IMG/VR virus record: IMGVR_UViG_3300049020_000015
Location: 1 to 59,842 of that record
Origin: a virus
Strand: one strand, 5' to 3'
DNA: 59,842 nt
Shown here: piece by piece, positions 8,411 through 51,600 of the stretch
Position numbering within the stretch: the first letter of the stretch is position 1
Layout: the number at the start of each line of letters is the position of its first letter
Notes under the pieces: generated by a model
The model's database searches: none
What the model was told of the DNA's origin: nothing
The model's input: the letters and a program-made list of their open reading frames with translations, nothing else
Translations under genes and position numbers: made by a program

Positions 8411-8574
8411 ATTAAGCTCTTTCAAATTTCTAATACTACAAGGACGTGCGCGTAATGGCGGCTCCCCCTTGTCCGTAGGCTTGACCTACGGGGGATAACT
8501 GGAAGTCTTTGTTTAGTAATGTTATTCCGAAGTACAACAAAGCGGGTTTGCTTCTTTACTGTGACAAAAGGAAG

Positions 8575-8760
8575 ATGATAGCCGGAAATAAACCGGCCCC
8601 TAACGGGAATAGAAGTTCTTTTAAGATACGTATTGATTGTTACAGCCGGTTACGTGACGCTGCCGGATTAAAGTCTGATAAGCGGGGAATAAAGTCATCC
8701 GAAGACAACATCAATACAATTTTATTAATGGCGCTTCATGGTAGCAAGAGTGCTAAGTAA
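8575..8760 (+). CDS. Possible ribbon-helix-helix-like small protein (61 aa)
   Basis: SFKIRIDCYSRLRDAAGL...EDNINTILLMAL fits a strand-helix-helix pattern. It is an isolated ORF in otherwise non-coding DNA and could be spurious. Confidence 0.35.
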   Translation: MIAGNKPAPNGNRSSFKIRIDCYSRLRDAAGLKSDKRGIKSSEDNINTILLMALHGSKSAK

Positions 8761-13514: not shown

Positions 13515-14126
13515 ATGGAACATTGGAAACAAATTGAATTTGGGAATGGCAAATATTCTGTTTCAGATTCAGGTAACGTAAAAAACAATATTACAGGCAA
13601 ATTACTAAGCTCTCAAATACAAAACTCTGGGTATCGCTTAGTTCACTTGCACGATAACGGAAAAAGAAAAGCCTCGACAATACATCGCCTTGTTGCATTG
13701 GCTTTCATAGATAACCCTGAATTAAAAACAATGGTGGATCATATTGATTGCAATAAGTTGAATAACCATGTTTCCAATTTAAGGTGGGTTACCGCTTGTG
13801 AAAATGGTAAATACGCTGTAGAGAATGGGCTATTTAAAAACGCTGCATTAAAAGCTAAGGACAGAATGAAGAAGATTGGGCGAGCATTTTCTAAAGCGAA
13901 TGGCGAAAGACTAATTGCAATGAACGCTAAAAAAAGAAAACCAGTGCTTCAGTTATCGTTGAAGGGCGAATTTATTAAAGAGTGGCCATCGGTTAGGGCA
14001 ATACGAAATGCTAATATCGCACATAATGTAGGGAAAGTATTAAAAGGAATATATGAGCAGTCGGGCGGGTATAAGTGGATATTCAAGGAGCCCGACCCAC
14101 ATCAAAAATTAACGATGGATTTATAG
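13515..14126 (+). CDS. HNH homing endonuclease (NUMOD4 + HNH_3 type)
   Basis: WKQIEFGNGKYSVSDSGNVKN (NUMOD4) and VDHIDCNKLNNHVSNLRWVTACEN (HNH). Confidence 0.85.
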   Translation: MEHWKQIEFGNGKYSVSDSGNVKNNITGKLLSSQIQNSGYRLVHLHDNGKRKASTIHRLVALAFIDNPELKTMVDHIDCNKLNNHVSNLRWVTACENGKYAVENGLFKNAALKAKDRMKKIGRAFSKANGERLIAMNAKKRKPVLQLSLKGEFIKEWPSVRAIRNANIAHNVGKVLKGIYEQSGGYKWIFKEPDPHQKLTMDL

Positions 14127-25706: not shown

Positions 25707-25919
25707 ATGAAAGATAAACCAAAACAACTGGGAGAACTGGATATTGCCGTTCAATTCAGGCTGAAGGGCGGGAAGGTCATTTACCGGACTATTGACCATA
25801 TGGAGTCGGTCAGGTGGGTTGCACAGACTAAACGGTGGTGTTTGAATTTGAAGACCAATAAGGCGGAATACCTGTTTTGTGATTTGTTTGTCGTGGAACA
25901 TATTGAAAGTTCAAAATAA
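25707..25919 (+). CDS. Hypothetical protein
   Basis: 70-aa ORF. Confidence 0.6.
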   Translation: MKDKPKQLGELDIAVQFRLKGGKVIYRTIDHMESVRWVAQTKRWCLNLKTNKAEYLFCDLFVVEHIESSK

Positions 25920-25938
25920 AGTGAAAGTCATATCTTTG
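25903..25938 (+). promoter_or_regulatory. Late-promoter-like element: copy A of the TTGAAAGTTCA motif plus a TATCTTTG (-7-like TAnnTTTG) box
   Basis: TTGAAAGTTCA at 25903-25913 and TATCTTTG at 25931-25938, about 32 nt upstream of the terS start. Confidence 0.4.
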
Positions 25939-25969: not shown

Positions 25970-26305
25970 ATGGCATTAGGAGGAGCAAGACCAGGCGCAG
26001 GGCGCAAGCCCAAGGTGGACGAGGAAAAGATCCGCGGGTTAGCTGTGTCTGCAATAGAAAAGAAGCATGGAGATCTTGAGACTGGGTTTATGAAGCTATT
26101 AGAAAGCAATGAGCCCAGCCTTATAAAATTCGTATGGGAGCATGCGGTAGGTAAGCCGAGGGATAAGATGGATGTTGATACGAGTCTCGTTGGGGGCCCT
26201 GCTGTCATCATTCAAATGCCGGCCGGAACCAATATTGACCTGCCTGATAATACCGAAGAACCCGACAACCTAGAAGATGAAGGAAGTCCAATTGTTCAAG
26301 AATGA
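25970..26305 (+). CDS. terS: Terminase small subunit (putative)
   Basis: N-terminal GGARPGAGRKPK motif; lies immediately upstream of, and overlapping, terL. Confidence 0.55.
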   Translation: MALGGARPGAGRKPKVDEEKIRGLAVSAIEKKHGDLETGFMKLLESNEPSLIKFVWEHAVGKPRDKMDVDTSLVGGPAVIIQMPAGTNIDLPDNTEEPDNLEDEGSPIVQE

Positions 26306-27470
26306 GAAAAGCCCCTTGTATTGGGCCAACCTTACTGCTCAACAGAAGATTGTAATCAATCAGGGTGGAACATCCAGCGGGAAAACCGAGGCAATTATGC
26401 GAGTATTGTTTACTATCGCTATTATCCGCAAAGGGTATGTAATAACAGTCACCACTAACACGGTACCAAAGTTAAAGGAAGATGCTCTCCGCATCGCTAA
26501 GAACATTGCTAAGATACCTGAGATCAAGTTATTTATAAAAGACTACAATAGTACTGACCGTACATATACTTTCAATAACGACTCTATAATTGAGTTTAAG
26601 AGCTTCGAGGATGAAGAGGAAGCGAAGGGGGGTAAGCGTCACATACTCTACATTAATGAGGCTACCCGTATACCATACGCTATTTTCTACCAGGCTGATC
26701 TACGTACTAAGGTAAGAACCTACATGGACTATAACCCCACATCCTCGTTTTGGGTGCATGATAAGGTGATCAATTGCCCCACGGGGCCGAAGGGTAAGGA
26801 GTTTGACAGTGTGAAGGTTATACGTAGCTGGCATGAGCATAACCCATACTTGACGGATGCCGAGCACGCCCGTATAGAACGCATAGGCGACAGGGATCTG
26901 TTCAAGGTGTACGCCCGGGGATTAACCGGTAAACTACGAGGAACAATATACAATTGGGATGAGGTAGAAGCGTTCCCGTGGACCGATGGCGTTATCTGGT
27001 ACGTTGACTGGGGGTTCTCTGAAAAAGAGACGGCCGATCCGACGGCATCCGGCCGTATAGCCTACAAGCCGTCTGACAGCGAATACGATTATGTGATCGA
27101 TGAGTTATGTTATGCAAGAGGGTTGGCCCCTGATGTGCTTGCGGATATGATATGGAAGGCCGGCTACAAGACAGGTCAGCCTTGTTATTGCGATCATTCG
27201 CCGGAAGGGATACGAGCTTTGAGATTAAAAGGTATCGCCGCATTCCCCTTTACAAAGGGTCCAGGAAGCATTATTGCCGGGGTATTGTTTATGCGCAACA
27301 AGAAAGTAGCCTACACTTCTCGAAGTGAGAATATAAGGACCGAGGTTAGAAAGTACAAATTCCTTGAGATAGAAGGCATTGTCACCAACACCCCAATTGA
27401 CGAGTTTAATCACCATATGGATGGGACCCGGGGAGCATGCCATACTCACCACCTTGTTACAGGTCAATAG
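26277..27470 (+). CDS. terL: Terminase large subunit
   Basis: Walker A GGTSSGKT, Walker B-like ILYINEA, and C-terminal nuclease acidic motifs (YVDWGFS, YCDHSPE, HHMDG). Confidence 0.85.
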   Translation: MKEVQLFKNEKSPLYWANLTAQQKIVINQGGTSSGKTEAIMRVLFTIAIIRKGYVITVTTNTVPKLKEDALRIAKNIAKIPEIKLFIKDYNSTDRTYTFNNDSIIEFKSFEDEEEAKGGKRHILYINEATRIPYAIFYQADLRTKVRTYMDYNPTSSFWVHDKVINCPTGPKGKEFDSVKVIRSWHEHNPYLTDAEHARIERIGDRDLFKVYARGLTGKLRGTIYNWDEVEAFPWTDGVIWYVDWGFSEKETADPTASGRIAYKPSDSEYDYVIDELCYARGLAPDVLADMIWKAGYKTGQPCYCDHSPEGIRALRLKGIAAFPFTKGPGSIIAGVLFMRNKKVAYTSRSENIRTEVRKYKFLEIEGIVTNTPIDEFNHHMDGTRGACHTHHLVTGQ

Positions 27471-27471
27471 A

Positions 27472-27512
27472 TTTCAAATAAATTTGAAAGTTCAGAATTA
27501 AATGTAACTTAG
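27472..27512 (+). promoter_or_regulatory. Inverted repeat plus promoter-like element (copy B of the TTGAAAGTTCA motif) at the head of the glycan cassette
   Basis: Inverted repeat TTTCAAAT-aa-ATTTGAAA at 27472-27489. TTTG (27483-27486), 18-nt spacer, TAACTTAG (27505-27512). Confidence 0.4.
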
Positions 27513-27529
27513 CTTTTCCCGACGTACGC

Positions 27530-27793
27530 ATGGGTAAGCTGAGTACGTTGACTATGGTTAACGAAATGGGCGTTATAAGTCTTACCACTTATGGCGCCCT
27601 TATTTATTTTATGGCAACAATTATTCTGAAAGACGAGATACTACTACCAGATGCGCGGGGCAGAGATTTCCCTTTTAAAAAAATAGAATGCAGTTGTTGG
27701 CAAAGATCAATTGGCTTTGAAGGTATCGAGGTGAGGATTGAAAATAAAAGCATCAGCATTCCTATCAATAACGTATTAGCCATTATCGAATGA
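27530..27793 (+). CDS. Hypothetical protein
   Basis: 87-aa ORF, first gene of the cassette. Confidence 0.6.
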   Translation: MGKLSTLTMVNEMGVISLTTYGALIYFMATIILKDEILLPDARGRDFPFKKIECSCWQRSIGFEGIEVRIENKSISIPINNVLAIIE

Positions 27794-28509
27794 CCGACAT
27801 CTGCATCCCACTCAATAACCGGTCAACGGTCAACAACTTGGAGCTGCGTTATTGTCTACGCAGCATCGAGAAGCATTTATCCCGCGTCGGCAACATCTTC
27901 ATCATTGGCTATTGCCCTGATTGGGTTCAAAACATTATCCATATACCTACTGACGAAGACCCGCGTAACCGGTTCAGAGATCGTAATATCATGAACAAGA
28001 TGCTGGCGGCGTGCAAGGATGAGCGCGTGAGTGATGACTTCCTGATGGTGCATGATGATCATTTCCTGTTGGTAAACTATGTAGCAAGAGCTTTCCCTTA
28101 TTACCATTGTGGGCATATGGTGCCGGGGGACGGGCAATATGGGGAGACAAAGCGAAATACATTATCAATTCTGGGAAGGCCGATTTATGACGAGGTAAAG
28201 AACTTTGATACCCATTGCCCAATACTCTTTAATAAAGAGAGGTTTATGCGGAGTGCACCTTTGGCCGACTGGAATAGATGGTATGGTTACTGCCTAAAGA
28301 CGTTGTACTGTGTAATGAACGGGATTGAGGGCGAGTATATGGATGATATAAAAATACGCATGCCCTTACAGGCAGATGAGATAAACCAGGCTATTGCCGG
28401 CCGTACATGGTTCAGCATTGGCGACCGGTGCTGGGCGCCCAATGGGATGAAAGAAATATTACAAGACTTATATCCAATACCAAGCAAGTATGAAAAAGGA
28501 AACGATTGA
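27790..28509 (+). CDS. Stealth-CR2-like sugar(-phosphate) transferase-like protein
   Basis: NNLELRYCLRSIEKHLSRVGNIFIIGYCPDWV resembles the Stealth CR2 block (N.ELRYSLRS...PW). An HDDH acidic motif is also present. Confidence 0.5.
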   Translation: MTDICIPLNNRSTVNNLELRYCLRSIEKHLSRVGNIFIIGYCPDWVQNIIHIPTDEDPRNRFRDRNIMNKMLAACKDERVSDDFLMVHDDHFLLVNYVARAFPYYHCGHMVPGDGQYGETKRNTLSILGRPIYDEVKNFDTHCPILFNKERFMRSAPLADWNRWYGYCLKTLYCVMNGIEGEYMDDIKIRMPLQADEINQAIAGRTWFSIGDRCWAPNGMKEILQDLYPIPSKYEKGND

Positions 28510-28717
28510 TATTGATACATCAAAGAACGCTGAAGTGAATAAGGGCGAACCGGGACTACCGGTGAAGATACCATTATCAATTGTGAGGTGGTTGGCCTAT
28601 TCGATAGGGATTGCCTTATTGTTAATTCCTTTTCATTTAACCTTTTGGCAGGGGATAAACGGCTCTTTGCTGCTCGGCCACTTCGCAAGTCAACTTAATG
28701 CGTTAATTAAAAAGTAG
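28490..28717 (+). CDS. Small membrane protein (about 2 TM)
   Basis: WLAYSIGIALLLIPFHLTFW and GSLLLGHFASQL. Confidence 0.55.
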   Translation: MKKETIDIDTSKNAEVNKGEPGLPVKIPLSIVRWLAYSIGIALLLIPFHLTFWQGINGSLLLGHFASQLNALIKK

Positions 28718-28718
28718 T

Positions 28719-28925
28719 ATGAAAACACTCAGGCATATATTCATTGCGCTTTTCTTGGCTGGTGTTGCTTATTGCATTGCTGCATCTGCAACAGAGTGGT
28801 GGATAGATGAGTTAAAGTCGTCGGGCGGCATGGTGACAGCAAGGGATTTAGTAGGCGCCCAATTTACGCCATGGGGCGCGGCATTGTTAGTTTTTGGCGG
28901 TTACTTAAAATTAGTATGGGAATGA
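28719..28925 (+). CDS. Small membrane protein (2 TM)
   Basis: IFIALFLAGVAYCIAASA and WGAALLVFGGYL. Confidence 0.6.
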   Translation: MKTLRHIFIALFLAGVAYCIAASATEWWIDELKSSGGMVTARDLVGAQFTPWGAALLVFGGYLKLVWE

Positions 28926-29578
28926 CCATCTGTTATTCATTTGCCAGCCGGTCAAGGCCGGAGCGATTCTTTGAGACACTCGATAATGTGCGCACTATGA
29001 GCGCCAGTGATGATTATTTCGTAGTGGCTAAGCTGGACACCGACGACCTAATGATGTACAATGATAACGTAAGATGTCGCATCGAACAGGCTCAGACCCC
29101 TATCATTTCAAGGTGGGGTACCAGTCAAAGTAAGATACACGCAATTAATAGATCATTAGATAACTTACCCCACTGGGACATTCTTGTCTGCCTCAGTGAT
29201 GATATGCGCTTTCGTACTCACGGATTCGACAACCTTATCCGTCAACACATGCCGGCCGATCTTGACGGGTTTGTTCATTTAATGGATGATTACGCTAAAG
29301 ACCGGGTATGCACGGTGAGTATATTGGGCCGCAAGTATTATGAACGCGATGGGTACATATATCACCCTGACTATTATTCGATGTGGTGCGATGATGAAGC
29401 GCAAGCTGTTGCCCAGCTGAGAGGTAAATATATTTTAGTGCCTGGTACTCATATTGAGCATCTACATTATACAAATAATGCAAAGGCAAAAAAAGATGAA
29501 TTGTATTGGAGAAACGATACTTATAATAAGGATAAAGAAGTGTTTTTAAAACGACAATTGCTAAACTTTGACTTATGA
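28922..29578 (+). CDS. GT-A fold glycosyltransferase-like protein
   Basis: ATGA overlap at 28922. MTICYSFASRSRPERF...VCLSDDMRF (DxD-like). Confidence 0.55.
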   Translation: MTICYSFASRSRPERFFETLDNVRTMSASDDYFVVAKLDTDDLMMYNDNVRCRIEQAQTPIISRWGTSQSKIHAINRSLDNLPHWDILVCLSDDMRFRTHGFDNLIRQHMPADLDGFVHLMDDYAKDRVCTVSILGRKYYERDGYIYHPDYYSMWCDDEAQAVAQLRGKYILVPGTHIEHLHYTNNAKAKKDELYWRNDTYNKDKEVFLKRQLLNFDL

Positions 29579-30126
29579 GTGACGAAAAGTGGAAGGCTAT
29601 CCCAAACACCAATGGCGCGTATGAAGTAAGCAACTATGGTCGGCTCAGGTCATATTTAGGGCAGGGCGCCAGAAAAAAATCTAAAGAGCCTGTAATGCTT
29701 AGCATAACAATAAACGGGAACGGCTACCCAGCAAAGCATATAAGAGGAGTTAATTTACGCATCCACCGACTTGTAGCGGAGGCGTTTATTCCTAACCCTT
29801 CAGGGTTACCTATGGTTAACCACATTGACGGCGATAAAACAAATAACCATATATCTAACCTTGAATGGTGCGATAAGAGTCATAATGAACGCCATGCTGA
29901 ACGAATGGGGCTTAAGAATAAGGCAAGGGGAGAAGGCTGTAATAAGTCGCAATTGACCGATGCGGATGTTATGGAAATATATAAATCAAACTTAGGGACC
30001 AGAGAATTGGGGCGTCAATACGGTGTCAATCACTCCGCAATATCGAATATAAAAACAGGCAGAACCTGGAATCACATAACAGGTGCGCCAATTGTACCTA
30101 ATAAGCGAAATGTATCATTCAAATGA
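29575..30126 (+). CDS. HNH homing endonuclease (NUMOD4 + HNH_3 + C-terminal HTH)
   Basis: WKAIPNTNGAYEVSNYGRLRS and VNHIDGDKTNNHISNLEWCDKSHN. ATGA overlaps at both ends. Confidence 0.85.
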   Translation: MSDEKWKAIPNTNGAYEVSNYGRLRSYLGQGARKKSKEPVMLSITINGNGYPAKHIRGVNLRIHRLVAEAFIPNPSGLPMVNHIDGDKTNNHISNLEWCDKSHNERHAERMGLKNKARGEGCNKSQLTDADVMEIYKSNLGTRELGRQYGVNHSAISNIKTGRTWNHITGAPIVPNKRNVSFK

Positions 30127-30698
30127 CACCAAAACTATCAATACTCATTCCAACGGTGCCAGGACGAGAGCAATTCTTTGATAGGATAGTGAAACACGTG
30201 TCAAGTCAAACGGTTGATTATTACTTAAAGCACGGCGTCGACATTGAAATACGTTCAGACAAGACAACCGATATATCGATAGGTGCCAAACGAAATCTAT
30301 TATTGCAGGAGTCGCGCGGCGAATACATCTGTTTCATCGATGATGACGATCGAATAGCCGATGATTACATTGAACTGGTAATGGCGGGCATTGCGACCAA
30401 TCCTGACTGCTGTTCGCTTAACGGGATCATTACCACAGACAGCAAAGACCCGAAACCGTTCAAGCATTCAATAGATTATGATTCGATGTATGAGCGCGAC
30501 GGTGTTTACTACCGGCCACCCAATCACCTCAATACCGTGAGATCATCGATTGCCAAACAGATGACATTCCCTGATTGGCAGCGAAGCGAGGATAGCAACT
30601 ATTGTTTCCAACTCCGGGATAGTGGACTACTGAAAGTGGAGTATAAGGTCGAGCAGACGTTATATTTTTATGATTACGTAAGCGATAAAAATTATTGA
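30123..30698 (+). CDS. Family 2 glycosyltransferase
   Basis: KLSILIPTVPGREQFFDRIVKHV ... ICFIDDDDRIADDYI. Confidence 0.75.
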   Translation: MTPKLSILIPTVPGREQFFDRIVKHVSSQTVDYYLKHGVDIEIRSDKTTDISIGAKRNLLLQESRGEYICFIDDDDRIADDYIELVMAGIATNPDCCSLNGIITTDSKDPKPFKHSIDYDSMYERDGVYYRPPNHLNTVRSSIAKQMTFPDWQRSEDSNYCFQLRDSGLLKVEYKVEQTLYFYDYVSDKNY

Positions 30699-30699
30699 T

Positions 30700-30855
30700 A
30701 TGGGTATGAAACTAGGACCAACATTAACCGCTGAACAAGAGTTCCGACGTGAAATCATAGCTAGAATTGAATATTGGGAGAATCGAGAGGACGGCAAGGA
30801 GTATGCCGAGTATTATAAATCAATATTAAGGGGCTTATTAAACAAGGACAAATGA
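30700..30855 (+). CDS. Hypothetical small protein (51 aa)
   Basis: Hand-translated ORF that fills the gap, with ATGA overlap to 30852. Confidence 0.4.
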   Translation: MGMKLGPTLTAEQEFRREIIARIEYWENREDGKEYAEYYKSILRGLLNKDK

Positions 30856-31700
30856 ACGCGATCGCATATTCATTATTCGGTTACAACCAACAACATGAAA
30901 ATTGTTACGACTTCCGGGCATACCTACGTGGTCTACATCTTAATATTCGCATTGCAGAACTGCTTTATCCAGGGTGGTCTATTTGCGTGGCAATAGACCA
31001 ATCGGTGCATTATTCGCCATATAGGGAATACTTCACCAACCTGGCATTGGATAAAAGATTAGATGTTTATCTACAGGCTACCCGCCCTTTGTGCGAAATG
31101 ATGCTGTATCGGTTGTTGCCTATGTTCATGATCGAGGATGATAAAAACAAATACGACCGCATTATCTGCCGCGACACTGACAGCTTGTTATCCTACCGCG
31201 AACGACAAGCAGTTTCCTATTGGGAACGAGGCCCCAAGATGGCACACGCAATTACCGACAGCGTAAGCCATAACATAACCCTTATGGGCGGTATGATCGG
31301 GTTCCAGTCCGGCCCCTTCCGCGCACGCATGGGCGTTAAGTCATTCGACGAACTACTATCACTCAGCCAGGGTATTGACTTTAATAACAAGGGCGCCGAT
31401 CAGGATTTCCTGAACCGGTACGTATTGCCCAAGGTAGCCGACAGCATCACCGAGCATTTCGTTCTTGGGCACCCTCAGACGTTCAGGGGCGATTGCCACA
31501 ACTTCATACACGATATTGACCTGAAAGAAATAGGGGTCCCTGATGAGCTTAAGGAGACCAACGGGTATGGCTTTCATGTTGGTGCCAGTGGCATGCAAAC
31601 TGATGCGGTGGTAAAGTTCCTGCAGAAGCATGGCAAGGATAATGAGTATTGGGAGGGGATCGAGAAACAATATCCATCTATATTTTATTGGATGCTATGA
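30852..31700 (+). CDS. Putative glycosyltransferase-like protein (DxD motif)
   Basis: 282 aa; IICRDTDSLLSY is DxD-like. The call rests on context within the GT cluster. Confidence 0.4.
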   Translation: MNAIAYSLFGYNQQHENCYDFRAYLRGLHLNIRIAELLYPGWSICVAIDQSVHYSPYREYFTNLALDKRLDVYLQATRPLCEMMLYRLLPMFMIEDDKNKYDRIICRDTDSLLSYRERQAVSYWERGPKMAHAITDSVSHNITLMGGMIGFQSGPFRARMGVKSFDELLSLSQGIDFNNKGADQDFLNRYVLPKVADSITEHFVLGHPQTFRGDCHNFIHDIDLKEIGVPDELKETNGYGFHVGASGMQTDAVVKFLQKHGKDNEYWEGIEKQYPSIFYWML

Positions 31701-32437
31701 TCAAAGGAATTTATAAAATTACATCACCCACCGGGAAGGTATACATTGGGCAAAGCATTGATATTGAAAAGCGCTTTAGAATATATAAACGCGTTAAACC
31801 ATGCTTTGCTCAAAAAACATTATACCAATCCCTTATGAAGCACGGTGTGGGCGCTCATAGTTTTGACGTGTTGCATCAATTGCCAAACGATGTAGACGAC
31901 GATATACTGAACGTTTATGAAATATTGTATATAGCCCAACACAAATCCTGTGGGATAAAAATGCTGAACATGTCAAATGGAGGTCGTGGACGCGCATGTT
32001 CAGTTTCAGAGGAAACGAAGAAGAAGATAAGCCAAGCCCATAAGGGTAAAGTTGTTTCAGAAGAATCAAGGATTAGAATGAGCAATGCTCAAAAAGGCGG
32101 GAAAAGGTCAGAGGCACATAAGGCGGCATTGAGCTGGAAGGGGCGTAAGCATAAAGAGGAAACAAAGAGAAAAATAGGAGCTAAGTCAAAGCTTAGATCA
32201 GGCGAACTGAATTGTAATTATGGCAAGAAACGATCAGAGGAAACAAAACAAAAGCAGAGCGAGGCGCTAAAAGGGAAATACGTTGGGGAGAAAGCCGCTA
32301 ATTTCGGAACAAAGCACAAACCGGAAAGCCTTCAAAAGATGCAACAAACTCATTTAAAAAAATGGTCTGATCCAGAGTATAAGGCGAAAATGAGACAAGC
32401 AGCCATTGACAGATGGAAGCGACAAAAAGAAAAATAA
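31697..32437 (+). CDS. GIY-YIG homing endonuclease with NUMOD3 repeats
   Basis: GIYKITSPTGKVYIGQS...KRFRIYK, then repeated EETKKKISQAHKGK-type NUMOD3 units. ATGA overlap at 31697. Confidence 0.85.
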   Translation: MIKGIYKITSPTGKVYIGQSIDIEKRFRIYKRVKPCFAQKTLYQSLMKHGVGAHSFDVLHQLPNDVDDDILNVYEILYIAQHKSCGIKMLNMSNGGRGRACSVSEETKKKISQAHKGKVVSEESRIRMSNAQKGGKRSEAHKAALSWKGRKHKEETKRKIGAKSKLRSGELNCNYGKKRSEETKQKQSEALKGKYVGEKAANFGTKHKPESLQKMQQTHLKKWSDPEYKAKMRQAAIDRWKRQKEK

Positions 32438-32442
32438 TTATT

Positions 32443-33189
32443 ATGAATAAGTATTGTGTACTTTCTGTAGACAACAACTCTGACTACTACAGCCTACTGC
32501 CGCTCGTCTGCCATAGCTGGCAGAAACTGGGTTATCAGCCGGTGATCATATTTGCCAACGCGCCATACAATACATGGAAGATAATAATGGACGCATGCCC
32601 CGATGCTAAGAGTCACATTATCCATCCGGTAGAAGGCGTTAAAGATTCAACATTGGCGCAACTACAAAGGTTATTTATGGGTGTGCATGCGCCTGAACAA
32701 GACGATATAATGATCAGTGCTGATGCCGACATGGTTATCGCCTCCGACATCTTCACCCACGACGTAAGCCAGGGGCAAATTGTTTCCTATGGTTACGACC
32801 TCACTGGCCGGTCAGAACTACCTATCTGCTATGTAAAGGCAACAGCTGCCAAATGGCGTGAGCTTATGGGCGAGTTTCATATCCCCGATGCCGCGTATAG
32901 CGACCAGTGGGAGACTTATTGGAGCACTGACCAACAGCTGTTAACCCAGCGCGCACACGAGTATGGCATGGGGAGGATAACCTTCGTTGACCGGGGCAAC
33001 CAGAATAAACACGGGTTGCCTACGGGCAGATGGGACCGCTACGATTGGGCGCATATCCCCGACGCCATCATCGACGTGCATATGAAGCGTAACGATTGGG
33101 ACGCTCAATACCAGGTCGCGGAAAGAATATGGCCCGGTGAAGATCATTCATTCATTACTAAATTTAGGGAGGCGTTAAATGGATTATAA
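32443..33189 (+). CDS. Putative glycosyltransferase-like protein (DxD motif)
   Basis: IMISADADMVIASD is DxD-like. ATG at 32443, after the endonuclease stop. Confidence 0.4.
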   Translation: MNKYCVLSVDNNSDYYSLLPLVCHSWQKLGYQPVIIFANAPYNTWKIIMDACPDAKSHIIHPVEGVKDSTLAQLQRLFMGVHAPEQDDIMISADADMVIASDIFTHDVSQGQIVSYGYDLTGRSELPICYVKATAAKWRELMGEFHIPDAAYSDQWETYWSTDQQLLTQRAHEYGMGRITFVDRGNQNKHGLPTGRWDRYDWAHIPDAIIDVHMKRNDWDAQYQVAERIWPGEDHSFITKFREALNGL

Positions 33190-33757
33190 GACCATTCAGG
33201 AAGGCTTAGATGTAATTGGCAAAAGCGACCGATGGGGCTTTTTAAAGACGTCAGGCAATTGGGATAATCATAAACCATTGCTTTTAATAGGGCTGACATT
33301 AGCCGAAGGCGCCGTAATAGAGCTAGGCAGCGGCGATGGTAGCACGTTGGTCTTGCGCCAGTACTGCGAATATACCGGTCGCATATTTCAGTCCTTCGAT
33401 AATAACGAAGAATGGTGTAAAAAGACCGGCGCTAAGCATGTATCAAATTGGGATGATGTCATAGCAGAGGCGGTAACAATAAAGTTTGGCCTCATCTTCA
33501 TCGACCACGCGCCAGGTGAACGCCGTTACCTCGATGCTATTGCCCTTGCCAATGCCGCTGATGTATTGGTGCTGCATGACACGGAAGAAGGAGGGGCGGG
33601 CAATTATTCATGGTCAAAGGCATGGCCGCACTTCAAATACCGCCTCAACTACAACAAGACAGGCGGCGGTGCAGGGGCTACCCTGGTGAGCAATAAGATT
33701 GATGTTAACCGGTTCAGAGGTTTATCTTTGGGATCATACACTTTTGATAACGATTAA
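33179..33757 (+). CDS. Class I SAM-dependent methyltransferase
   Basis: Motif I VIELGSGDGST; post-I/II FIDHAP...VLVLHD. Confidence 0.7.
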   Translation: MDYKTIQEGLDVIGKSDRWGFLKTSGNWDNHKPLLLIGLTLAEGAVIELGSGDGSTLVLRQYCEYTGRIFQSFDNNEEWCKKTGAKHVSNWDDVIAEAVTIKFGLIFIDHAPGERRYLDAIALANAADVLVLHDTEEGGAGNYSWSKAWPHFKYRLNYNKTGGGAGATLVSNKIDVNRFRGLSLGSYTFDND

Positions 33758-33767
33758 TTATTTAAGT

Positions 33768-34031
33768 ATGAAAATCCCTCAGAACATTATTACAAAGTAC
33801 AGCCTCTATGAGACAAATGAGCAACTTGGCCAATCGTTCATGAATGGTCTGAAAGTGTACAAATCTACACGTCCAGATATTGAGCATTTACGTTTTGCCG
33901 AATGCGATATACACGGGAATCCAACAAGTTACATTGCAATAATGAATGTACAGGAGAAAAAGATAATCCAAGTTACTACAGAATTCATGAATGATATTGC
34001 CTTTGAAGCCATGTTAAATGAAGCATTATGA
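33768..34031 (+). CDS. Hypothetical protein
   Basis: ATG at 33768, after the upstream stop; 87 aa. Confidence 0.55.
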   Translation: MKIPQNIITKYSLYETNEQLGQSFMNGLKVYKSTRPDIEHLRFAECDIHGNPTSYIAIMNVQEKKIIQVTTEFMNDIAFEAMLNEAL

Positions 34032-34049
34032 TCGATCTAAACCACTGCA

Positions 34050-34481
34050 ATGAATGGCAGTATGACAGACAAAGACCAACATAAATTAGCCAAAGCAAAA
34101 GCGATCGCCGACGAGATTGTGCACCTAGCCGATGTTATTACAAAGAACACCTGCATAGCATTCCCGCCTAAACGATTGTTTCGCAAGAAGGGGAAACGCC
34201 CGCCAAAGCGTTTGAAACGGCGTAAGGCAATGTTAGTGTTAGCCATAAGCCCGCAGATGGTGCGAGCCCGTATTATGATGATAGCGGCTCAGCCAATACC
34301 AAATTACGTTCCCGGAGGCGTAGTAAATACAGGTATAGCTATAGTAGGCGAATCAGGTCCCGAACAAATAATACTACCAAATGGAACAATCACAACCGCT
34401 AATCAACATCCTCATCCGCACCAGCTCCCGACCGGCCCAATTTGCCCGGTGCCTGGAATCGATAAGGAATCAGACGTATAA
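34050..34481 (+). CDS. Basic protein carrying a tape-measure C-terminal-like GESGPE motif (possible gene fragment)
   Basis: GGVVNTGIAIVGESGPEQIILPNG resembles the GG..vGE.GPE..iP motif of tape-measure C-termini. Overlaps the next gene by 101 nt. Confidence 0.4.
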   Translation: MNGSMTDKDQHKLAKAKAIADEIVHLADVITKNTCIAFPPKRLFRKKGKRPPKRLKRRKAMLVLAISPQMVRARIMMIAAQPIPNYVPGGVVNTGIAIVGESGPEQIILPNGTITTANQHPHPHQLPTGPICPVPGIDKESDV

Positions 34482-35010
34482 AAACATTCAGATTATCGTT
34501 GGGTTTGATAATCCGGAAGCTGTTCGATATATCCCTATCGGCGACAATATCAGGAAGTTATTTATTGAACCATTTTGCAATTACCCATACTTCTATGACC
34601 TGTACTGCAACACATTGAAGCTACTGGTGACCCACGGCTGGTTCTTCTTTCTTGACGATGACGACGCCTTAGCCAGCAATACGGTATTAGAAGAACTTGC
34701 CGAACACCTTACCGAACCCGCCGCCATCATCTGTCAGATGTTACGCAACGGTGTACCGAAGCCCGCCGATAACTATATCCGAAAGAAAATAATAGCAGAG
34801 GGCAAGATCGGCCTGCCTTGTCTGGTGCTGCACTCGAAACACAAGGCACTTTCCGGCTTATATGGCCATAAGGCTGGCGACTACCGGTATATCAAGGAAG
34901 TCACCGACCAGGTACCCACCAAATTTATAGCCCTGCCATTGGTAAATGCCGGCGCCCGAGGTCACGGCAAAATGGAAGGGAAAGACAATCTTTCAAACAT
35001 TTCAGAATAA
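34381..35010 (+). CDS. Family 2 glycosyltransferase
   Basis: LINILIRTSSRPAQFARCLESIRNQTYKNIQIIVGFDN ... FFLDDDDAL. Confidence 0.75.
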   Translation: MEQSQPLINILIRTSSRPAQFARCLESIRNQTYKNIQIIVGFDNPEAVRYIPIGDNIRKLFIEPFCNYPYFYDLYCNTLKLLVTHGWFFFLDDDDALASNTVLEELAEHLTEPAAIICQMLRNGVPKPADNYIRKKIIAEGKIGLPCLVLHSKHKALSGLYGHKAGDYRYIKEVTDQVPTKFIALPLVNAGARGHGKMEGKDNLSNISE

Positions 35011-35038
35011 TTTGAAAATATATTTCTAATTTCGTAGT

Positions 35039-35248
35039 ATGCAGGAGATTAGATGCAGTAGTCCTAAGTGCAATAAAGTGGTTGGTGAATTGGAAGCCGG
35101 TAAGGCCCGATTCAAGTGCAAACACTGCGGCACCTATACGACTGCAGAGATATTGCCAACGCAAGTTGGCCCCGAGCAAAACATACAACAAGCGACCCAG
35201 TGGACAGGAACGGCTAACGCCTATGTAGGTAGACACGATAGAGGTTAA
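35039..35248 (+). CDS. Com-like zinc-ribbon protein
   Basis: MQEIRCSSPKCNKVVGELEAGKARFKCKHCGT parallels the Mu Com pattern (RC..C.k.l....g...ikC..C). Confidence 0.5.
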   Translation: MQEIRCSSPKCNKVVGELEAGKARFKCKHCGTYTTAEILPTQVGPEQNIQQATQWTGTANAYVGRHDRG

Positions 35249-35279
35249 CGCTTAATCCAAAAATACTAGCGCCCCAAGA

Positions 35280-35320
35280 GGGCCAGCACTCAGCAATGGG
35301 TGACTGGCCCTTTTTCTTTT
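35280..35320 (+). terminator. Rho-independent terminator closing the glycan cassette
   Basis: GGGCCAG...CTGGCCC stem followed by TTTTTCTTTTT. The portal ATG follows at 35322. Confidence 0.7.
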
Positions 35321-35321
35321 T

Positions 35322-36899
35322 ATGGAAGTACAACGACTTATAAACGCAGGCAGAGAACTGATTAAAGGCGATTTTGATACCGCCCTTAAGTCGTTGACAC
35401 CGTACTCCTATGAACTTGTTTCTAACGGCTATCGACCTTCTGCAACGGGCGCCGGCGACAATTGGTTCTTTGAAGCGAATGGCAAGTCGGTTTTTCATTT
35501 CAAGTATGCTGGGCATAATAGCTCAGTAAAGGCCTATGAATATTGCCCACCCGTTAACGCGATCATCAACAAGAAAGCGCAGGCGTTTATCAACGGTAAG
35601 ACATGGGTACTGAATCTCACTGGCAAAGAGAAGGGCAAGGAAGCTACAACGGCAGATGCGAAAAAGCTACAGGCCTTATTTGAGAAGCCTAATCTATTAC
35701 AGTCCTGGAAGCAATTTGAGGCGCAAGGGTATATCTACCAACAGTTGTTTGGCTATACTATCGTACTGCCTATTAAGCCATTAGGCTTCAAAGAGAATAT
35801 CGATGCGACAGCCCTATGGAATATCCCGCCGTCCATGGTGGATATTGAGGAGACCAACAAGCTCTTTTACCAGAGCGATAATAAAGGCATCATCAAGCAG
35901 ATTGTACTTAACTACAAGGGGGTACAAACAATATTGAACGTTGATGATATATACATTATAAAAGACTTCACCCCTTCGTTCTGCAGCCTTGTTATCCCTG
36001 ATAGTCGTATTCACTCACTCGAACTTCCTATCAACAATATCATCGGCGCCTACGAAAGCCGTAATGTTCTGATCAATTACCGGGGGGCGCTGGGTATACT
36101 ATCGCAGGACCCGGGTAGCGGTAATTATGGATCCATACCAATGTCCGAAAAGGAAAAGGAGAACCTACAACAAGACCTACGTCGCTATGGCCTTAAGAAC
36201 CATCAATGGCAGTTTATCATAACATCAGCCGCTTTGAAGTGGCAACAGATGGGGGTAGCGACACGCGACCTTATGTTGTTCGAGGAAATCGAAGCTGACA
36301 CAATGGCTATCTGCGATAACTACAATTACCCTTACCAGCTAATGAGTAGCGCTAAGGGAACAACCTTTAGCAACCTTAATGAAGGCAAGAAGTTGCTATA
36401 TCAAGATGCCACACTACCCGAAGCTGAAAGCATATACGAGCAGTGGAATCAATTCTTTAATACTAAGAAGTACAACCTTAAGATAGACAAGGACTACAGC
36501 CATGTAGCGGTATTACAGGAAGATAAACAGCAATCGGCACAGGCTCGTAAGACCCTCGATGACGCGCTTACTATTGAATTCCAAAATGGCTTAATAACAC
36601 TCGATGACTGGCTTGAGAAGTTGGGCGAAGACCCATTGCCCGATGGGTTGGGTCAGGTACGTGCAACTGACCCTAAATCATCTAATGTGCCACTGGCAGT
36701 AACCATTGGTGTGGGAGGTGTTCAGGGATTAATCGCTGTGATAACCGCACAGGGAATGAGTGAAGAAGCAAAGCAGGCAACCCTTGAGGTGGTGTTTGGA
36801 TTATCTCCGCAAGATGCAGCACGAATGTCAATACAAACAGAAACACAAACTAATACCAATGAAACCGGAAACCAAGAACAAGGGCAAGCAGCAGCCTAA
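35322..36899 (+). CDS. Portal protein
   Basis: 525 aa, positioned upstream of the protease and capsid genes. The assignment rests on size and synteny. Confidence 0.7.
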   Translation: MEVQRLINAGRELIKGDFDTALKSLTPYSYELVSNGYRPSATGAGDNWFFEANGKSVFHFKYAGHNSSVKAYEYCPPVNAIINKKAQAFINGKTWVLNLTGKEKGKEATTADAKKLQALFEKPNLLQSWKQFEAQGYIYQQLFGYTIVLPIKPLGFKENIDATALWNIPPSMVDIEETNKLFYQSDNKGIIKQIVLNYKGVQTILNVDDIYIIKDFTPSFCSLVIPDSRIHSLELPINNIIGAYESRNVLINYRGALGILSQDPGSGNYGSIPMSEKEKENLQQDLRRYGLKNHQWQFIITSAALKWQQMGVATRDLMLFEEIEADTMAICDNYNYPYQLMSSAKGTTFSNLNEGKKLLYQDATLPEAESIYEQWNQFFNTKKYNLKIDKDYSHVAVLQEDKQQSAQARKTLDDALTIEFQNGLITLDDWLEKLGEDPLPDGLGQVRATDPKSSNVPLAVTIGVGGVQGLIAVITAQGMSEEAKQATLEVVFGLSPQDAARMSIQTETQTNTNETGNQEQGQAAA

Positions 36900-46305: not shown

Positions 46306-48402
46306 ATGCAGGGTAAAGATTTTATATATTTTTTATTTGACGAAAACAATAACAGTTATTACCAGTATGGTGATACGGTTCTCTCGTCTGCCTCACTTAA
46401 GCCGCTAGAATTTACACCGGACGGATGGAAGAAAATCCAAATTCAGAACCAACGTAACGGCACCTACTTCGCGGTAGATCGCAGTTTTACTGTACCATTA
46501 GAATATGTGAAAGATGGTGGACAAATACTCAAACACATCTACTACAACTATGGCATAGAGGCAAAGGTGTATATGGTAGTATGTGAGCAACAATTATACT
46601 TTGATGCAACACATTACGGGTATTACTATAAGTTATTGTATCGTGGAGAGATTGATCTTGCACAGTTTAAACACGACGGTGCTAAGGTTACAGTTAACAT
46701 CATGGAGGGCGGTATTGTTAAGTTTATCAAGGCTTATGAGAATACTAAGTATGAGATACCTGTTGATGTGCCCGATGCTGTTGATGTGTATATGGATGGG
46801 GTAGAATTTAAATATAATACCGGATTCATAACTATACAGGATAGCTATGATAATGTTCAGCCATTTGGGAATGCAGCACATAGAGAATATTTTATGACAT
46901 TTTACAATTTCTCAACGGAAGGGCAATTAGTTAATGTCATTACTCAGGACATATCCAGAGAAATTGCGACCGGCTTTAATCCGGCCACAGATGAACGATG
47001 GTTTTTAAAAGCCTTGGCAAATGTAAACTTAGATACGCATTTTAAATTTAGCGGGTCTCTAACAAAAACGCTTGGGCCGTTTACGATGCGTTTTAGGATA
47101 TTGGTTGCTGATCAGAATGGCAACCAGCTATTAACACTCTTCGATGAAACCAAAGGGCCGGGTGCAATATTCGAGCCGGTTAATATTGATGTTCAAGCTA
47201 CTTTAAATCTAAGTCAAGATGACCGGTTGTTTCTGCTATTAATACTAGACTCAGACAACACTGCACTTCCGATGTATGGTATTTTTAGTATTGACGAAAG
47301 CACTTCTGATTTAAGTTATTTTTCTTCATACAGGCCAACCACCATCAAAGCCCTGCGCCCGGCCTACGTATTACAGCAACTCATAAGTAAAATATCAGGA
47401 GGCGCATACACGCCCCAGTCCGATTACCTAACCAATACCATTAACGATGTTGTTATCACATGCGGAGACGCAATACGCAATATACAAGACGCTGTTATAA
47501 AAACAAGCCTGCGCGATTTCTTTACATCCTACAATAGTCATTTCGGAATTGGGATGGGGATGTTGGGGAACACTTTAAGGCTTGAGCAAAAATCTTTTTG
47601 GGTACAGTATACTGATGTCATTGACCTTGGCGAAGTGAGTAAGATGAAAGTGTCGCCAGCTAACGACCTACTTGTAAATAACATTAAGATAGGAACGCCT
47701 GAGCAAAAATACGACGACGTGAATGGCAAGCAGGAGTTTAATACGACTTCTGAGTATTCCACCCCTATTACGCGAGTAGCAAAAGACTTAAGCCTTATAA
47801 GTGTGTACCGGGCCGATTGCTATGGTATAGAGTTCACGCGCCTTAATCTTGATGGGAAAGATACTACTGATAATGACAGCGATAATGATGTGTTTATGAT
47901 CCATATTGAGGACACGCAAAGGGGTGATGGCTTATATCATGTTGATCGCTCATTGAATGCTGGCGCCACAGGACTGCTTTCCCCGGCTACAATATTTAAT
48001 CTATATCTCACGCCCGCGAGAGCGCTCAGGCGCAACGGTGATTATATAAGATCATTGTTTTATAAACTCGATGCCAAGTATTTAACATTTCAAACGTCGG
48101 ATAAGAACGACCAGGTTGTTGCTGTCGGCATAACCGAGAATGCGGATGTGCAAATCGCGTCACTCCCATCACCATTATTCAGCTGCAACTATCTGGAATT
48201 TGAAACAAAGGTGCCGCTTGATACACTTGAACTTTTAAGGGCTAATCCTTTAAAGGCGTTCAGTGGAACATGGGCCGGGTTCTCCTTCGTGGGCATACCG
48301 GATAAAGTATCGGTACAGCCAGGTGATAACGGCGCACAGACGTTTAAGTTACTCGCCAGCCCTAACACAAACTTATTGGATTTAATAAATATTGAAGGAT
48401 GA
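46306..48402 (+). CDS. Distal tail / baseplate protein (putative)
   Basis: 698 aa, directly after the tape-measure gene. Confidence 0.55.
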   Translation: MQGKDFIYFLFDENNNSYYQYGDTVLSSASLKPLEFTPDGWKKIQIQNQRNGTYFAVDRSFTVPLEYVKDGGQILKHIYYNYGIEAKVYMVVCEQQLYFDATHYGYYYKLLYRGEIDLAQFKHDGAKVTVNIMEGGIVKFIKAYENTKYEIPVDVPDAVDVYMDGVEFKYNTGFITIQDSYDNVQPFGNAAHREYFMTFYNFSTEGQLVNVITQDISREIATGFNPATDERWFLKALANVNLDTHFKFSGSLTKTLGPFTMRFRILVADQNGNQLLTLFDETKGPGAIFEPVNIDVQATLNLSQDDRLFLLLILDSDNTALPMYGIFSIDESTSDLSYFSSYRPTTIKALRPAYVLQQLISKISGGAYTPQSDYLTNTINDVVITCGDAIRNIQDAVIKTSLRDFFTSYNSHFGIGMGMLGNTLRLEQKSFWVQYTDVIDLGEVSKMKVSPANDLLVNNIKIGTPEQKYDDVNGKQEFNTTSEYSTPITRVAKDLSLISVYRADCYGIEFTRLNLDGKDTTDNDSDNDVFMIHIEDTQRGDGLYHVDRSLNAGATGLLSPATIFNLYLTPARALRRNGDYIRSLFYKLDAKYLTFQTSDKNDQVVAVGITENADVQIASLPSPLFSCNYLEFETKVPLDTLELLRANPLKAFSGTWAGFSFVGIPDKVSVQPGDNGAQTFKLLASPNTNLLDLINIEG

Positions 48403-49229
48403 AAACGTGGCTTGTTTATATACATAAGAATTCAGATACTAAGGAAGTATTTTATGTGGGCATAGGCAGTTCTGAAAAAAGGCCTTACAAAAAAAGTAAT
48501 CGTAGCGAAAGATGGAAAAACTATGTAATTAAATACGGCAATCCAATAGTTGAAATAATCGATAGGGGTCTTTCATTCGAGCAAGCGATAACGCAAGAGA
48601 AAAATCTTATTGCAAAGTATGGGCGTAAAAAAATTGATCCCAACGGGATATTAGTGAATATTTCAGAAGGTGGTCGTGGCAGTAGTGGAGTTCCTTGTTC
48701 CGAAGAAAGGAAAAAGAAATTAAGCGTTGCGTTAAGCGGCAAAAATAACCCTAACTATGGCCGATCTCATACGCTCGAAGCAAGGGAGAAAATACGTTTG
48801 TCCAAGATAGGAAGGCAACACTCGATTGAAACAATTAAAAAAATACTACAAACACGTAAAGAAAATGAAAAATGTATTGGATTTAAAATGAGCGAAGAGG
48901 CGAAGAATAAGATAAGATTATCAAGACTTGGCCAAAAGGCAACTGAAGAAACAAAAATAAAAATGCGCCAAAGAATATCTGATAGAGGAGGTAGTAATAT
49001 GAAAGGCAAAAGGCATGCTGATGAGGCTAAAAAGAAAGTAAGTGAAGCTAATAAAGGTAAAAGGACTGGAGCCCATAATCATAAATCTAAGAAAGTAATT
49101 GATACCGCGACGGGCAATATTTATGTTTCCTGTAAAGACGCGTGCGATACACTGAGATTGAATTATACATACGTTAAATCACAATTGAATGGGTTTCATA
49201 AGAACCTTACAACCCTAAAGTATTTATAA
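48399..49229 (+). CDS. GIY-YIG homing endonuclease with NUMOD3 repeats
   Basis: LVYIHKNSDTKEVFYVGIG...RW, then EERKKKLSVALSGKNNPNYG and EAREKIRLSKIGRQHS repeats. ATGA and TAATG overlaps. Confidence 0.8.
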   Translation: MKTWLVYIHKNSDTKEVFYVGIGSSEKRPYKKSNRSERWKNYVIKYGNPIVEIIDRGLSFEQAITQEKNLIAKYGRKKIDPNGILVNISEGGRGSSGVPCSEERKKKLSVALSGKNNPNYGRSHTLEAREKIRLSKIGRQHSIETIKKILQTRKENEKCIGFKMSEEAKNKIRLSRLGQKATEETKIKMRQRISDRGGSNMKGKRHADEAKKKVSEANKGKRTGAHNHKSKKVIDTATGNIYVSCKDACDTLRLNYTYVKSQLNGFHKNLTTLKYL

Positions 49230-51561: not shown

Positions 51562-51600
51562 ATGTTTCAGAACTGATTGAAAATAGTATAATTTTATATC

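Follow-up and report, generated by a model that had tools for sequence, protein, structure and literature searches.

A predicted glycan-assembly island between the terminase and portal genes of a temperate Bacteroidota phage clade

Gene content of the terL-portal block

The window analyzed here, the whole 59,842-nucleotide stretch of IMG/VR virus record IMGVR_UViG_3300049020_000015, is a ~60-kb temperate siphovirus-like genome with a Bacteroidota host, and it contains a block of genes (the cassette) between terL (26277-27470, + strand; Terminase_6N) and the portal gene (35322-36899, + strand; PF04860, 2e-16). The window also encodes a Bacteroidota-type tyrosine integrase with Arm-DNA-bind_5 and SAM_5 domains (1973-3151), located 24 kb away from the cassette, as well as an HK97-fold capsid, a tape-measure protein, a fiber with a GDSL esterase domain, and a polysaccharide lyase; no tRNA was found in the window. 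When one cassette gene was searched against a genome collection, the sole match was a Bacteroidota metagenome-assembled genome. The spacing between terL and portal is 7.85 kb and holds ~15 open reading frames (ORFs), all on the + strand and tightly packed or overlapping; the initial annotation gave the same end of terL and start of portal and counted about 16. The GC content of the block (0.42–0.47) is like that of its flanks and the rest of the genome. Six soluble glycosyltransferase-like enzymes are encoded, one Stealth-type, three GT2/GT-A, and two GT8-like GT-A, along with a probable methyltransferase, and none of these enzymes contains a transmembrane segment. The block is a glycan-assembly island carried by a phage clade within the late packaging and head gene region. 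As the best reading of its function, held tentatively and with slightly less than even confidence, we propose that a glycan, methylated and possibly phospho-linked, is assembled on virion proteins in the cytoplasm late in infection.

The first enzyme of the block (27790-28509; 239 amino acids) carries NNLELRYCLRSIEKH and had been annotated as a Stealth-CR2-like transferase. Taken alone, the window sequence scores 26.5 bits against Stealth_CR2, below the Pfam threshold of 39.4, with weak GNPTAB matches, but a profile built from 29 relatives matches human GlcNAc-1-phosphotransferase (GNPTAB) at 3.6e-12 over residues 14-160 and CpsY at 6e-8. Stealth_CR2 is matched by all 29 relatives (best 2.8e-11) and CR4 is detected in four of them, while CR1 and CR3 are detected in none. 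Based on the CR2 and CR4 matches of the relatives and the profile matches to GNPTAB and CpsY, the annotation is supported, and we predict a minimal Stealth-type enzyme acting as a hexose-1-phosphate (sugar-1-phosphate) transferase. The protein shares with the Stealth family a CR2 region with conserved ELRYxLRSIEKH and NDD motifs and a CR4-like C-terminal S-K-Y-E; it differs from GNPTAB and from capsule phosphotransferases such as CpsY in its size, as ~240 amino acids is half or less that of the characterized members. An exhaustive search returned a family of similar ~235-amino-acid proteins (3035 clusters at E ≤ 1e-3), and this phage-sized set of more than 3000 clusters has no characterized member. 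Full-length Stealth-like homologs with 24–26% identity also occur in Fionnbharth (gp6; JN831653, 1273-1959) and ~34 other cluster K mycobacteriophages, where the hypothetical protein is unannotated in the records and sits just upstream of terminase and portal.

Three enzymes had been described as GT-A/GT2 proteins, an assignment that holds. Those at 30123-30698 and 34381-35010, each with a DDDD motif, pass the PF00535 gathering score (31.3 and 35.4 bits, respectively, against a cut-off of 23.3). The third (28922-29578; 218 amino acids) has no PDB profile match and is placed by its match to a PHROG glycosyltransferase family only (phrog_14945, 1.6e-11), together with an SDD motif that is invariant in the alignment.

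The remaining two DxD proteins (30852-31700 and 32443-33189) lack any Pfam (including GT8), NCBIfam, or PDB sequence match, whether searched singly or as profiles. Each was modeled with AlphaFold (AF2) from an alignment of its homologs, giving pLDDT values of 80 and 82, and Foldseek searches of these models against the PDB returned matches at 6.7e-6 and 3.0e-7 with TM scores of 0.42–0.58. The closest folds to both are GT8 enzymes (glycogenin, UGGT, GlyE, and LgtC), and against viral models the two proteins are placed beside giant-virus and cyanophage transferases. The models thus identify the first as a GT-A fold of the GT8-like, glycogenin/UGGT-like type with an invariant D108-T-D110, and the second as a GT8/GT6-like GT-A with an invariant D94-A-D96. 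Had the DxD proteins not been nucleotide-sugar transferases, the proposal of a glycosylation block would have been undermined; the fold comparison instead favors transferases and, with them, a glycan-building cassette. The two GT8-like proteins are not recent duplicates of one another (hhalign probability 1%).

The product of 33179-33757 was initially assigned as a class I S-adenosylmethionine (SAM) methyltransferase. Its motif I (ELGSGDGST) is present, followed by FIDHAPGERR and HDTEE, and the pattern V-x-E-L-G-S-G-x-G-S-T, which comes after a beta strand, is invariant or near-invariant in 23 sequences, with Rossmann-like motifs downstream. However, the protein has no Pfam, NCBIfam, or PDB-profile match, and a Pfam scan of 23 relatives was likewise empty, so the assignment is retained as probable only. 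A profile of this family matches a Methyltransf_24-like family encoded in the neighboring variable slot of relatives (hhalign probability 59.8%, E = 8.8e-5, spanning motifs I–IV), while its motif I aligns weakly to the TylF-like methyltransferase of mycobacteriophage Corndog. In several relatives (proteins P0123, P0131, and P0230), a GT-A of the 32443-33189 type is fused to the methyltransferase. A comparable fusion is A064R of the chlorovirus PBCV-1, in which two rhamnosyltransferase domains are joined to a methyltransferase domain whose role is to methylate the sugar that they have just attached to the capsid glycan (PMC7826918). Both systems involve virus-encoded, multi-enzyme glycan assembly, cytoplasmic in PBCV-1 and presumably so here; they differ in that PBCV-1 is a eukaryotic giant virus with scattered genes and a known acceptor, Vp54, and there is no relationship between them at the sequence level.

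The block also encodes two mini-proteins, initially described as having two transmembrane segments each and as fitting a flippase-like role. Both are present, but conservation across the clade is limited to that at 28490-28717 (75 amino acids), a membrane protein with a single clear transmembrane segment and, at its C terminus, a conserved helix, ILGHFASQLNALIKK; the second, hydrophobic one (28719-28925; 68 amino acids) is found only in the window and in two relatives (L001 and L002). Across the block, about one clear transmembrane segment per protein is the maximum, and no protein has a Pfam match to a GtrA-like flippase or a multi-pass serotype-specific transferase. The flippase-like role is therefore weak, and we reject it for these mini-proteins because their topology is not multi-pass.

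A conserved membrane protein among such enzymes is nevertheless a point for the main rival explanation, in which the cassette remodels a lipid-linked glycan of the host envelope (capsule, lipopolysaccharide (LPS), or the Bacteroidota general O-glycan). Soluble transferases tethered by the mini-protein would add or alter sugars on undecaprenyl-linked intermediates, either late in infection or in the lysogen, thereby masking receptors against superinfection or keeping progeny off lysing cells. Enzymes of the GT2, GT8-like, and Stealth kinds make up the usual repertoire of capsule and LPS loci, and the best NCBIfam matches are to transferases of polysaccharides and lipid-linked oligosaccharides, with CpsY among the PDB matches. 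However, the block contains no flippase, polymerase, initiating transferase, or Gtr-type multi-pass protein, and six or more transferases far exceed the content of known seroconversion modules. Taking these points together with those of position and regulation below, we regard this explanation as somewhat unlikely.

Conservation and mosaicism among related phages

We compared the cassette across 50 IMG/VR loci collected by terL, 18 collected by the GT8-like gene, and 7 further contigs. In more than 20 related contigs it always lies on the late strand between terL and portal, and all close relatives share the order Stealth, membrane mini-protein, GT-A, GT2, GT8-like, slot 1, GT8-like, methyltransferase, slot 2, GT2, zinc ribbon, portal, in which the two slots are variable. 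This order is kept where terL is only 33–37% identical and where terS is of the GP3_package or Terminase_2 type. In relatives with a replaced terL (L053-L056), the cassette is still linked to the portal and capsid genes, which are 70–95% identical. The cassette is absent from L012 (terL 64%, portal 55%), in which terL and portal are separated by only ~680 bp, and two other distant relatives have ~2.4 kb between these genes and no transferases. In the distant phages L060, L062, L064, and L065, a five-gene core at 26–50% identity again adjoins terL. Based on the clade-wide synteny and the distant five-gene core, the block appears to be an ancient, mobile module, now fixed in this clade, rather than a recent moron.

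The initial annotation had treated the block as an autonomous moron-type unit. It does have its own promoter (see below), but this view does not accord with the clade-wide synteny, which extends to unrelated terL genes, with the unremarkable GC content, or with a terminator that belongs to the phage backbone. Two hallmarks of morons, deviant base composition and sporadic presence in close relatives, are both lacking. The same comparison holds for the gtrABC-type modules of lysogenic conversion. As in those modules, the phage is temperate and carries accessory glycosyltransferases under their own promoter, which are absent from the distant L012. Unlike those modules, the cassette has no GtrA- or GtrC-like multi-pass protein, no GC deviation, and no terminator of its own; it is not near int or att, and it combines clade-wide conservation with motifs shared with the late region.

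It had also been suggested that no such cassette was known at this locus. This is the case for cultured phages: among 50,697 phage records, megablast found nothing that matched the block, and tblastn of the GT8-like protein gave only a weak match, in an uncultured megaphage. In metagenomes, however, the cassette is common, with 693 homolog clusters for one of its genes (GT8-like).

Gene content and alleles are mosaic between near-identical phages. Relative to the nearest relative, L051, nucleotide identity is 98% from the Stealth gene to the first GT8-like gene, nil over the GIY-YIG endonuclease gene, 76% over the second GT8-like gene and the methyltransferase gene, nil in slot 2, and 94% from the last GT2 gene onward; the drop from 98% to no similarity is a sharp recombination breakpoint that coincides with the GIY-YIG gene of the window. 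The GT2 at 30123 occurs in the clade as two deeply diverged alleles (~43% versus 70–100% identity), with only ~43% identity between them in phages whose terL is 95% identical. In relatives, slots 1 and 2 hold an extra GT-like protein, a Rossmann-fold protein, an FkbM methyltransferase, a Methyltransf_24-like protein, or HNH-AP2 endonucleases, and cassette length ranges from 7.85 kb in the window up to ~10 kb. O-antigen and capsule loci show the same pattern, and the exchange of alleles and slot contents implies that closely related phages make different glycans.

Two of the ORFs were annotated as homing endonucleases, and domain matches confirm both. The first (29575-30126) is a free-standing HNH enzyme with NUMOD4 and HNH_3 domains, inserted where relatives have a ~30-nt gap. 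The second (31697-32437) is the GIY-YIG/NUMOD3 enzyme at the recombination breakpoint and is unique to the window at this site. Free-standing homing endonucleases are unusually numerous in the window, with further genes at 13515-14126 and 48399-49229. Their kinds comprise HNH/NUMOD4, GIY-YIG/NUMOD3, and HNH-AP2, and their sites vary among relatives (L052, L059, L085, L086, and L091).

The remaining ORFs are small. They include one of 51 amino acids (30700-30855), one in variable slot 2 (33771-34031), and a gene for a basic protein of 143 amino acids (34050-34481) that is possibly part of the backbone, as homologs also occur in the cassette-less L045. The final 33 codons of the latter overlap the start of the GT2 gene, and the protein has an IVGExGPE-type motif that is seen as well at the C terminus of the tape-measure protein.

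The frequency of homing endonucleases in and around the block, together with ORFs of 51, 60, and 110 amino acids without assignable function, could be taken to mean that the cassette is partly decaying cargo kept mobile by these enzymes. Alternatively, the product might be built on an acceptor of another sort, such as a non-structural phage protein, a cytoplasmic protein of the host, or a glycoconjugate, free or lipid, that serves lysis or assembly. We consider these possibilities, taken together, distinctly unlikely. The core enzymes are intact and their catalytic-type motifs are invariant across hundreds of homologs, which argues for selection on activity, and the consistent synteny argues for one coordinated pathway. 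The block is a coordinated, selected, multi-enzyme glycan-assembly module of the late region.

Promoter, leader RNA, and portal boundary

A promoter-like site of the Bacteroidota type, TTTG-N18-TAACTTAG, lies at 27483-27512 on the + strand, as initially annotated. It is conserved in L001-L010, and at the same position L011, L084, L086, and L087 contain a perfect TTTG-N19/20-TAnnTTTG, which supports the assignment. A sigma-70-type scan was uninformative for Bacteroidota and also missed a long-loop terminator. Exact copies of the 15-nt promoter core TTGAAAGTTCARAAT occur in the window only here (27484-27498) and upstream of terS (25903-25917). Both copies fall in the intergenic regions flanking terS-terL, and that at 25903 is followed by a perfect TAnnTTTG box (25931-25938).

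Overlapping the -33 element is a perfect, operator-like palindrome, TTTCAAATAAATTTGAAA (27472-27489, + strand). Its pattern, TTTCA-N8-TGAAA, is found in the window at three intergenic sites only: here, after terL; at 35000-35017 (+ strand), before the unit of zinc-ribbon and portal genes; and at 51565-51582, before the esterase fiber gene. The same type of palindrome follows terL in relatives and precedes the zinc-ribbon gene in the cassette-less L045 and L050. Its probable role is as the site bound by a late regulator that acts as a dimer. With the promoter core shared with terS and the palindrome shared with the portal and fiber junctions, the cassette looks co-regulated with the late genes.

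Between the promoter and the first AUG is a structured leader RNA of ~95 nt (27517-27613, + strand), comprising a P1 hairpin (27520-27550; loop GGUAAG at 27533-27538) and a terminator-like P2 hairpin (27568-27599; loop CUUACC at 27581-27586) followed by a U-run and then the AUG. A covariance model gave 20 matches, exactly one per cassette-bearing locus; the leader is carried by the window, L001-L011, L053, L056, L058, L059, and L084-L091, and the model found none in cassette-less or distant loci or elsewhere in the window. No Rfam family matches the leader. A DNA-pattern scan of viral sequences for further copies recovered only the known clade and chance coding matches, and two such scans of metagenomes recovered nothing. 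An 87-amino-acid ORF (27530-27793) overlaps this conserved non-coding RNA; if it is real at all, its actual length is probably 60 amino acids (27611-27793), and this small ORF is poorly conserved, with a different small basic peptide in its place in relatives. In L005 and L006/L052, the first gene after the leader is similar to RLIG1 RNA ligase (PF17720, 4e-14; for example, L052 5028-5609).

The two apical loops of the leader are perfectly complementary over 6–10 nt in every sequence, even though the loop sequences themselves differ, forming nine matched types that include GGUAAG/CUUACC (the window), GGGGUAG/CUACCCC, GGUUAG/CUAACC, GGUGAG/CUCACC, and UCGGGA/UCCCGA. Because loops of different types do not share one register in the model alignment, pairing was judged by a direct complementarity test with cross-type and shuffle controls. 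Mean complementarity is 7.2 nt within the same sequence versus 4.2 nt across types, and none of 2000 shuffles reached the observed value.

The layout of promoter, short structured leader, terminator, and long operon recurs downstream as the unit of zinc ribbon, terminator, and portal. Together, the layout of the leader and its recurrence before portal suggest that cassette expression depends on read-through, under control of the antitermination type. Known leader-RNA systems include the PR'-6S RNA-tR' late leader of lambda and the leader-RNA controls of phage P4 (CI) and P1 (c4). Like these, the cassette has a promoter whose short structured leader runs into an intrinsic terminator ahead of a long late operon, and its loop sequences covary between related phages in the manner of a specificity. 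In contrast, both complementary loops here lie in a single 90-nt leader, with a predicted intramolecular kissing interaction, and no Q-, CI-, or c4-like component was identified.

At the downstream end, the initial annotation had placed a Com-like zinc ribbon and a strong terminator that closed the cassette. A zinc ribbon with CxxC...CxxC is indeed encoded (35039-35248, + strand), as is a GC-rich hairpin with a U-run (35276-35320, + strand; -27.7 kcal/mol, z = -3.5) that ends 1 nt before the portal AUG. However, both are kept directly upstream of portal in cassette-less relatives, with compensatory changes in the stem (L012, L045, L050, L001, and L002 compared), and the four cysteines and the adjoining conserved hairpin are found in distant relatives as well; they are therefore elements of the portal backbone rather than of the cassette. 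The zinc ribbon does not match the Com family model and has only weak zinc-ribbon matches. The pairing of zinc ribbon and hairpin suggests a Com/mom-style control of translation or read-through of the portal and head genes. In L012, a tRNA-like sequence with an apparent CAT anticodon is visible by eye between the zinc-ribbon gene and the portal hairpin (~8560-8640).

Because a Com-like zinc ribbon brings to mind com-mom, the DNA-modification module of Mu, and because the cassette adjoins terS/terL in several lineages, the enzymes might be thought to glycosylate or methylate the phage DNA beside the packaging genes, as a base hypermodification against restriction. We judge this very improbable. 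The zinc ribbon is an element of the portal backbone that also occurs where the cassette is missing, and the larger ORFs scanned include no hydroxymethylase, thymidylate-synthase-like, or deazapurine genes. The phage is temperate, and the only replication protein found is a Toprim-domain (primase-like) protein. A set of six transferases with a Stealth enzyme does not resemble known DNA glycosylation systems.

Acceptor of the glycan and biological meaning

In the proposed virion glycosylation, the enzymes would act in the cytoplasm late in infection, converting host nucleotide sugars into a short oligosaccharide that is methyl-capped and possibly phosphodiester-linked. The oligosaccharide would be built directly on virion proteins (capsid, tail tube, or fibers) before or during assembly. 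Expression would be gated by read-through at the leader and its terminator and again at the backbone terminator before portal, and swapped alleles and accessory genes (GT-like, FkbM, Methyltransf_24-like, and Rossmann-fold) would yield different glycans in closely related phages.

Virion proteins are favored as acceptors because the enzymes are soluble, because the module is tied to packaging and head genes and lies far from the integrase, and because the block lacks a flippase, polymerase, or Gtr-type component. In addition, the only experimentally characterized phage cassettes of such composition and position modify the capsid as well as the tail tube. In the cluster O mycobacteriophage Corndog, gp35-38 comprise an O-methyltransferase and three glycosyltransferases located between the portal and capsid protease genes (PMC4351075), and these enzymes are reported, in a paper that cites Freeman et al. 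2023 for the finding, to glycosylate the capsid and tail tube (PMC11600133). As in Corndog/Che8-type cassettes, the glycosyltransferase and methyltransferase genes of the window are co-directional within the structural and assembly region. Specifically, the two cassettes share a methyltransferase with several GT-A-type transferases, placement on the same strand in the head-morphogenesis part of a siphovirus late operon, and enzymes that are soluble and not virion components. We also count the Stealth-like homologs upstream of terminase in cluster K phages as a precedent for virion glycosylation. The block described here differs from that of Corndog in host phylum, in lying between terL and portal instead of between portal and protease, and in being 2–3 times larger, with a Stealth enzyme and a membrane mini-protein. 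It also has its own promoter and leader RNA and is strongly mosaic among close relatives; and while virion glycosylation is reported for Corndog, here it is proposed.

Several observations weigh against virion proteins as the acceptor. Homology to the Corndog enzymes was rejected, as hhalign comparisons of the o282, o258, and methyltransferase profiles with Corndog gp35 and gp36 gave probabilities below 10%, so the precedent comes without sequence homology to the cassette proteins. A search for a marker of glycosylation in the structural proteins found none: neither Ser/Thr-rich tails nor cassette-specific extensions were found in the portal, capsid, tail tube, or neighboring proteins when compared with the cassette-less L050. 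The conserved membrane mini-protein is not needed for cytoplasmic protein glycosylation and hints at a membrane-associated step, and the synthesis of capsule and LPS employs GT2, GT8, and Stealth enzymes just as typically. The late timing, moreover, is deduced from the shared motifs, and a promoter of the host's housekeeping type could also work in lysogens.

The type of promoter likewise counts toward remodeling of the host envelope, as do the temperate lifestyle of the phage, its other glycan-targeting proteins (the GDSL esterase fiber and the polysaccharide lyase), and an allelic mosaicism like that of host surface-glycan loci. The same idea has been proposed for a glycosyltransferase encoded between the portal and capsid genes of the 'Gratiaviridae', a family of Bacteroides phages (PMC8008677). 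Against it, the cassette occupies a site in the packaging and head region, 24 kb from the integrase, shares regulatory motifs with the terS, portal, and fiber junctions, and is bound to structural genes across phage lineages. Based on position, regulation, and precedent, glycosylation of the virion is favored over remodeling of a lipid-linked host glycan.

The observation of a glycosylation block at this locus is real, while its description as an autonomous moron with a flippase should be dropped. A phage glycosylation cassette in the structural region is of a known kind; what sets this one apart from known examples is the phylum, the combination of a Stealth enzyme with two orphan GT-A families, the size, the hypervariability, and the dedicated leader RNA. 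To our knowledge, phage-encoded virion glycosylation, which alters antibody recognition, has been demonstrated in only a few actinobacteriophages; among other viruses, it is also known from giant algal viruses.

A bolder scenario, which we offer as speculation and consider unlikely as a whole, is that Bacteroidota siphoviruses of an abundant, uncultured clade coat their virions with methylated, perhaps phosphodiester-linked, glycans that are specific to the strain. These would be the products of a "glycotype" island that recombines, shuffling its alleles and accessory genes in part at the sites of homing endonucleases. The island would be gated by a previously undescribed kissing-loop leader RNA with at least nine matched specificities, suggesting that read-through into the cassette and head genes is controlled by RNA in a phage-specific way.

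The cassette offers a large family of minimal Stealth proteins without a characterized member and two sequence-orphan GT-A families, and it is common in metagenomes although not found among the cultured phages searched. The leader RNA is a compact natural example of covarying kissing loops ahead of a terminator and is a candidate for a new cis-regulatory motif. If the target is instead a host surface glycan, the cassette would be an unusually large conversion module encoded in the late region. If virion glycosylation is correct, the phenomenon would extend to phages of the Bacteroidota and could be a hypervariable trait, with a different glycan for each phage strain, which would have a bearing on how phages interact with hosts and with the environment, on serological typing, and on the engineering of phages.

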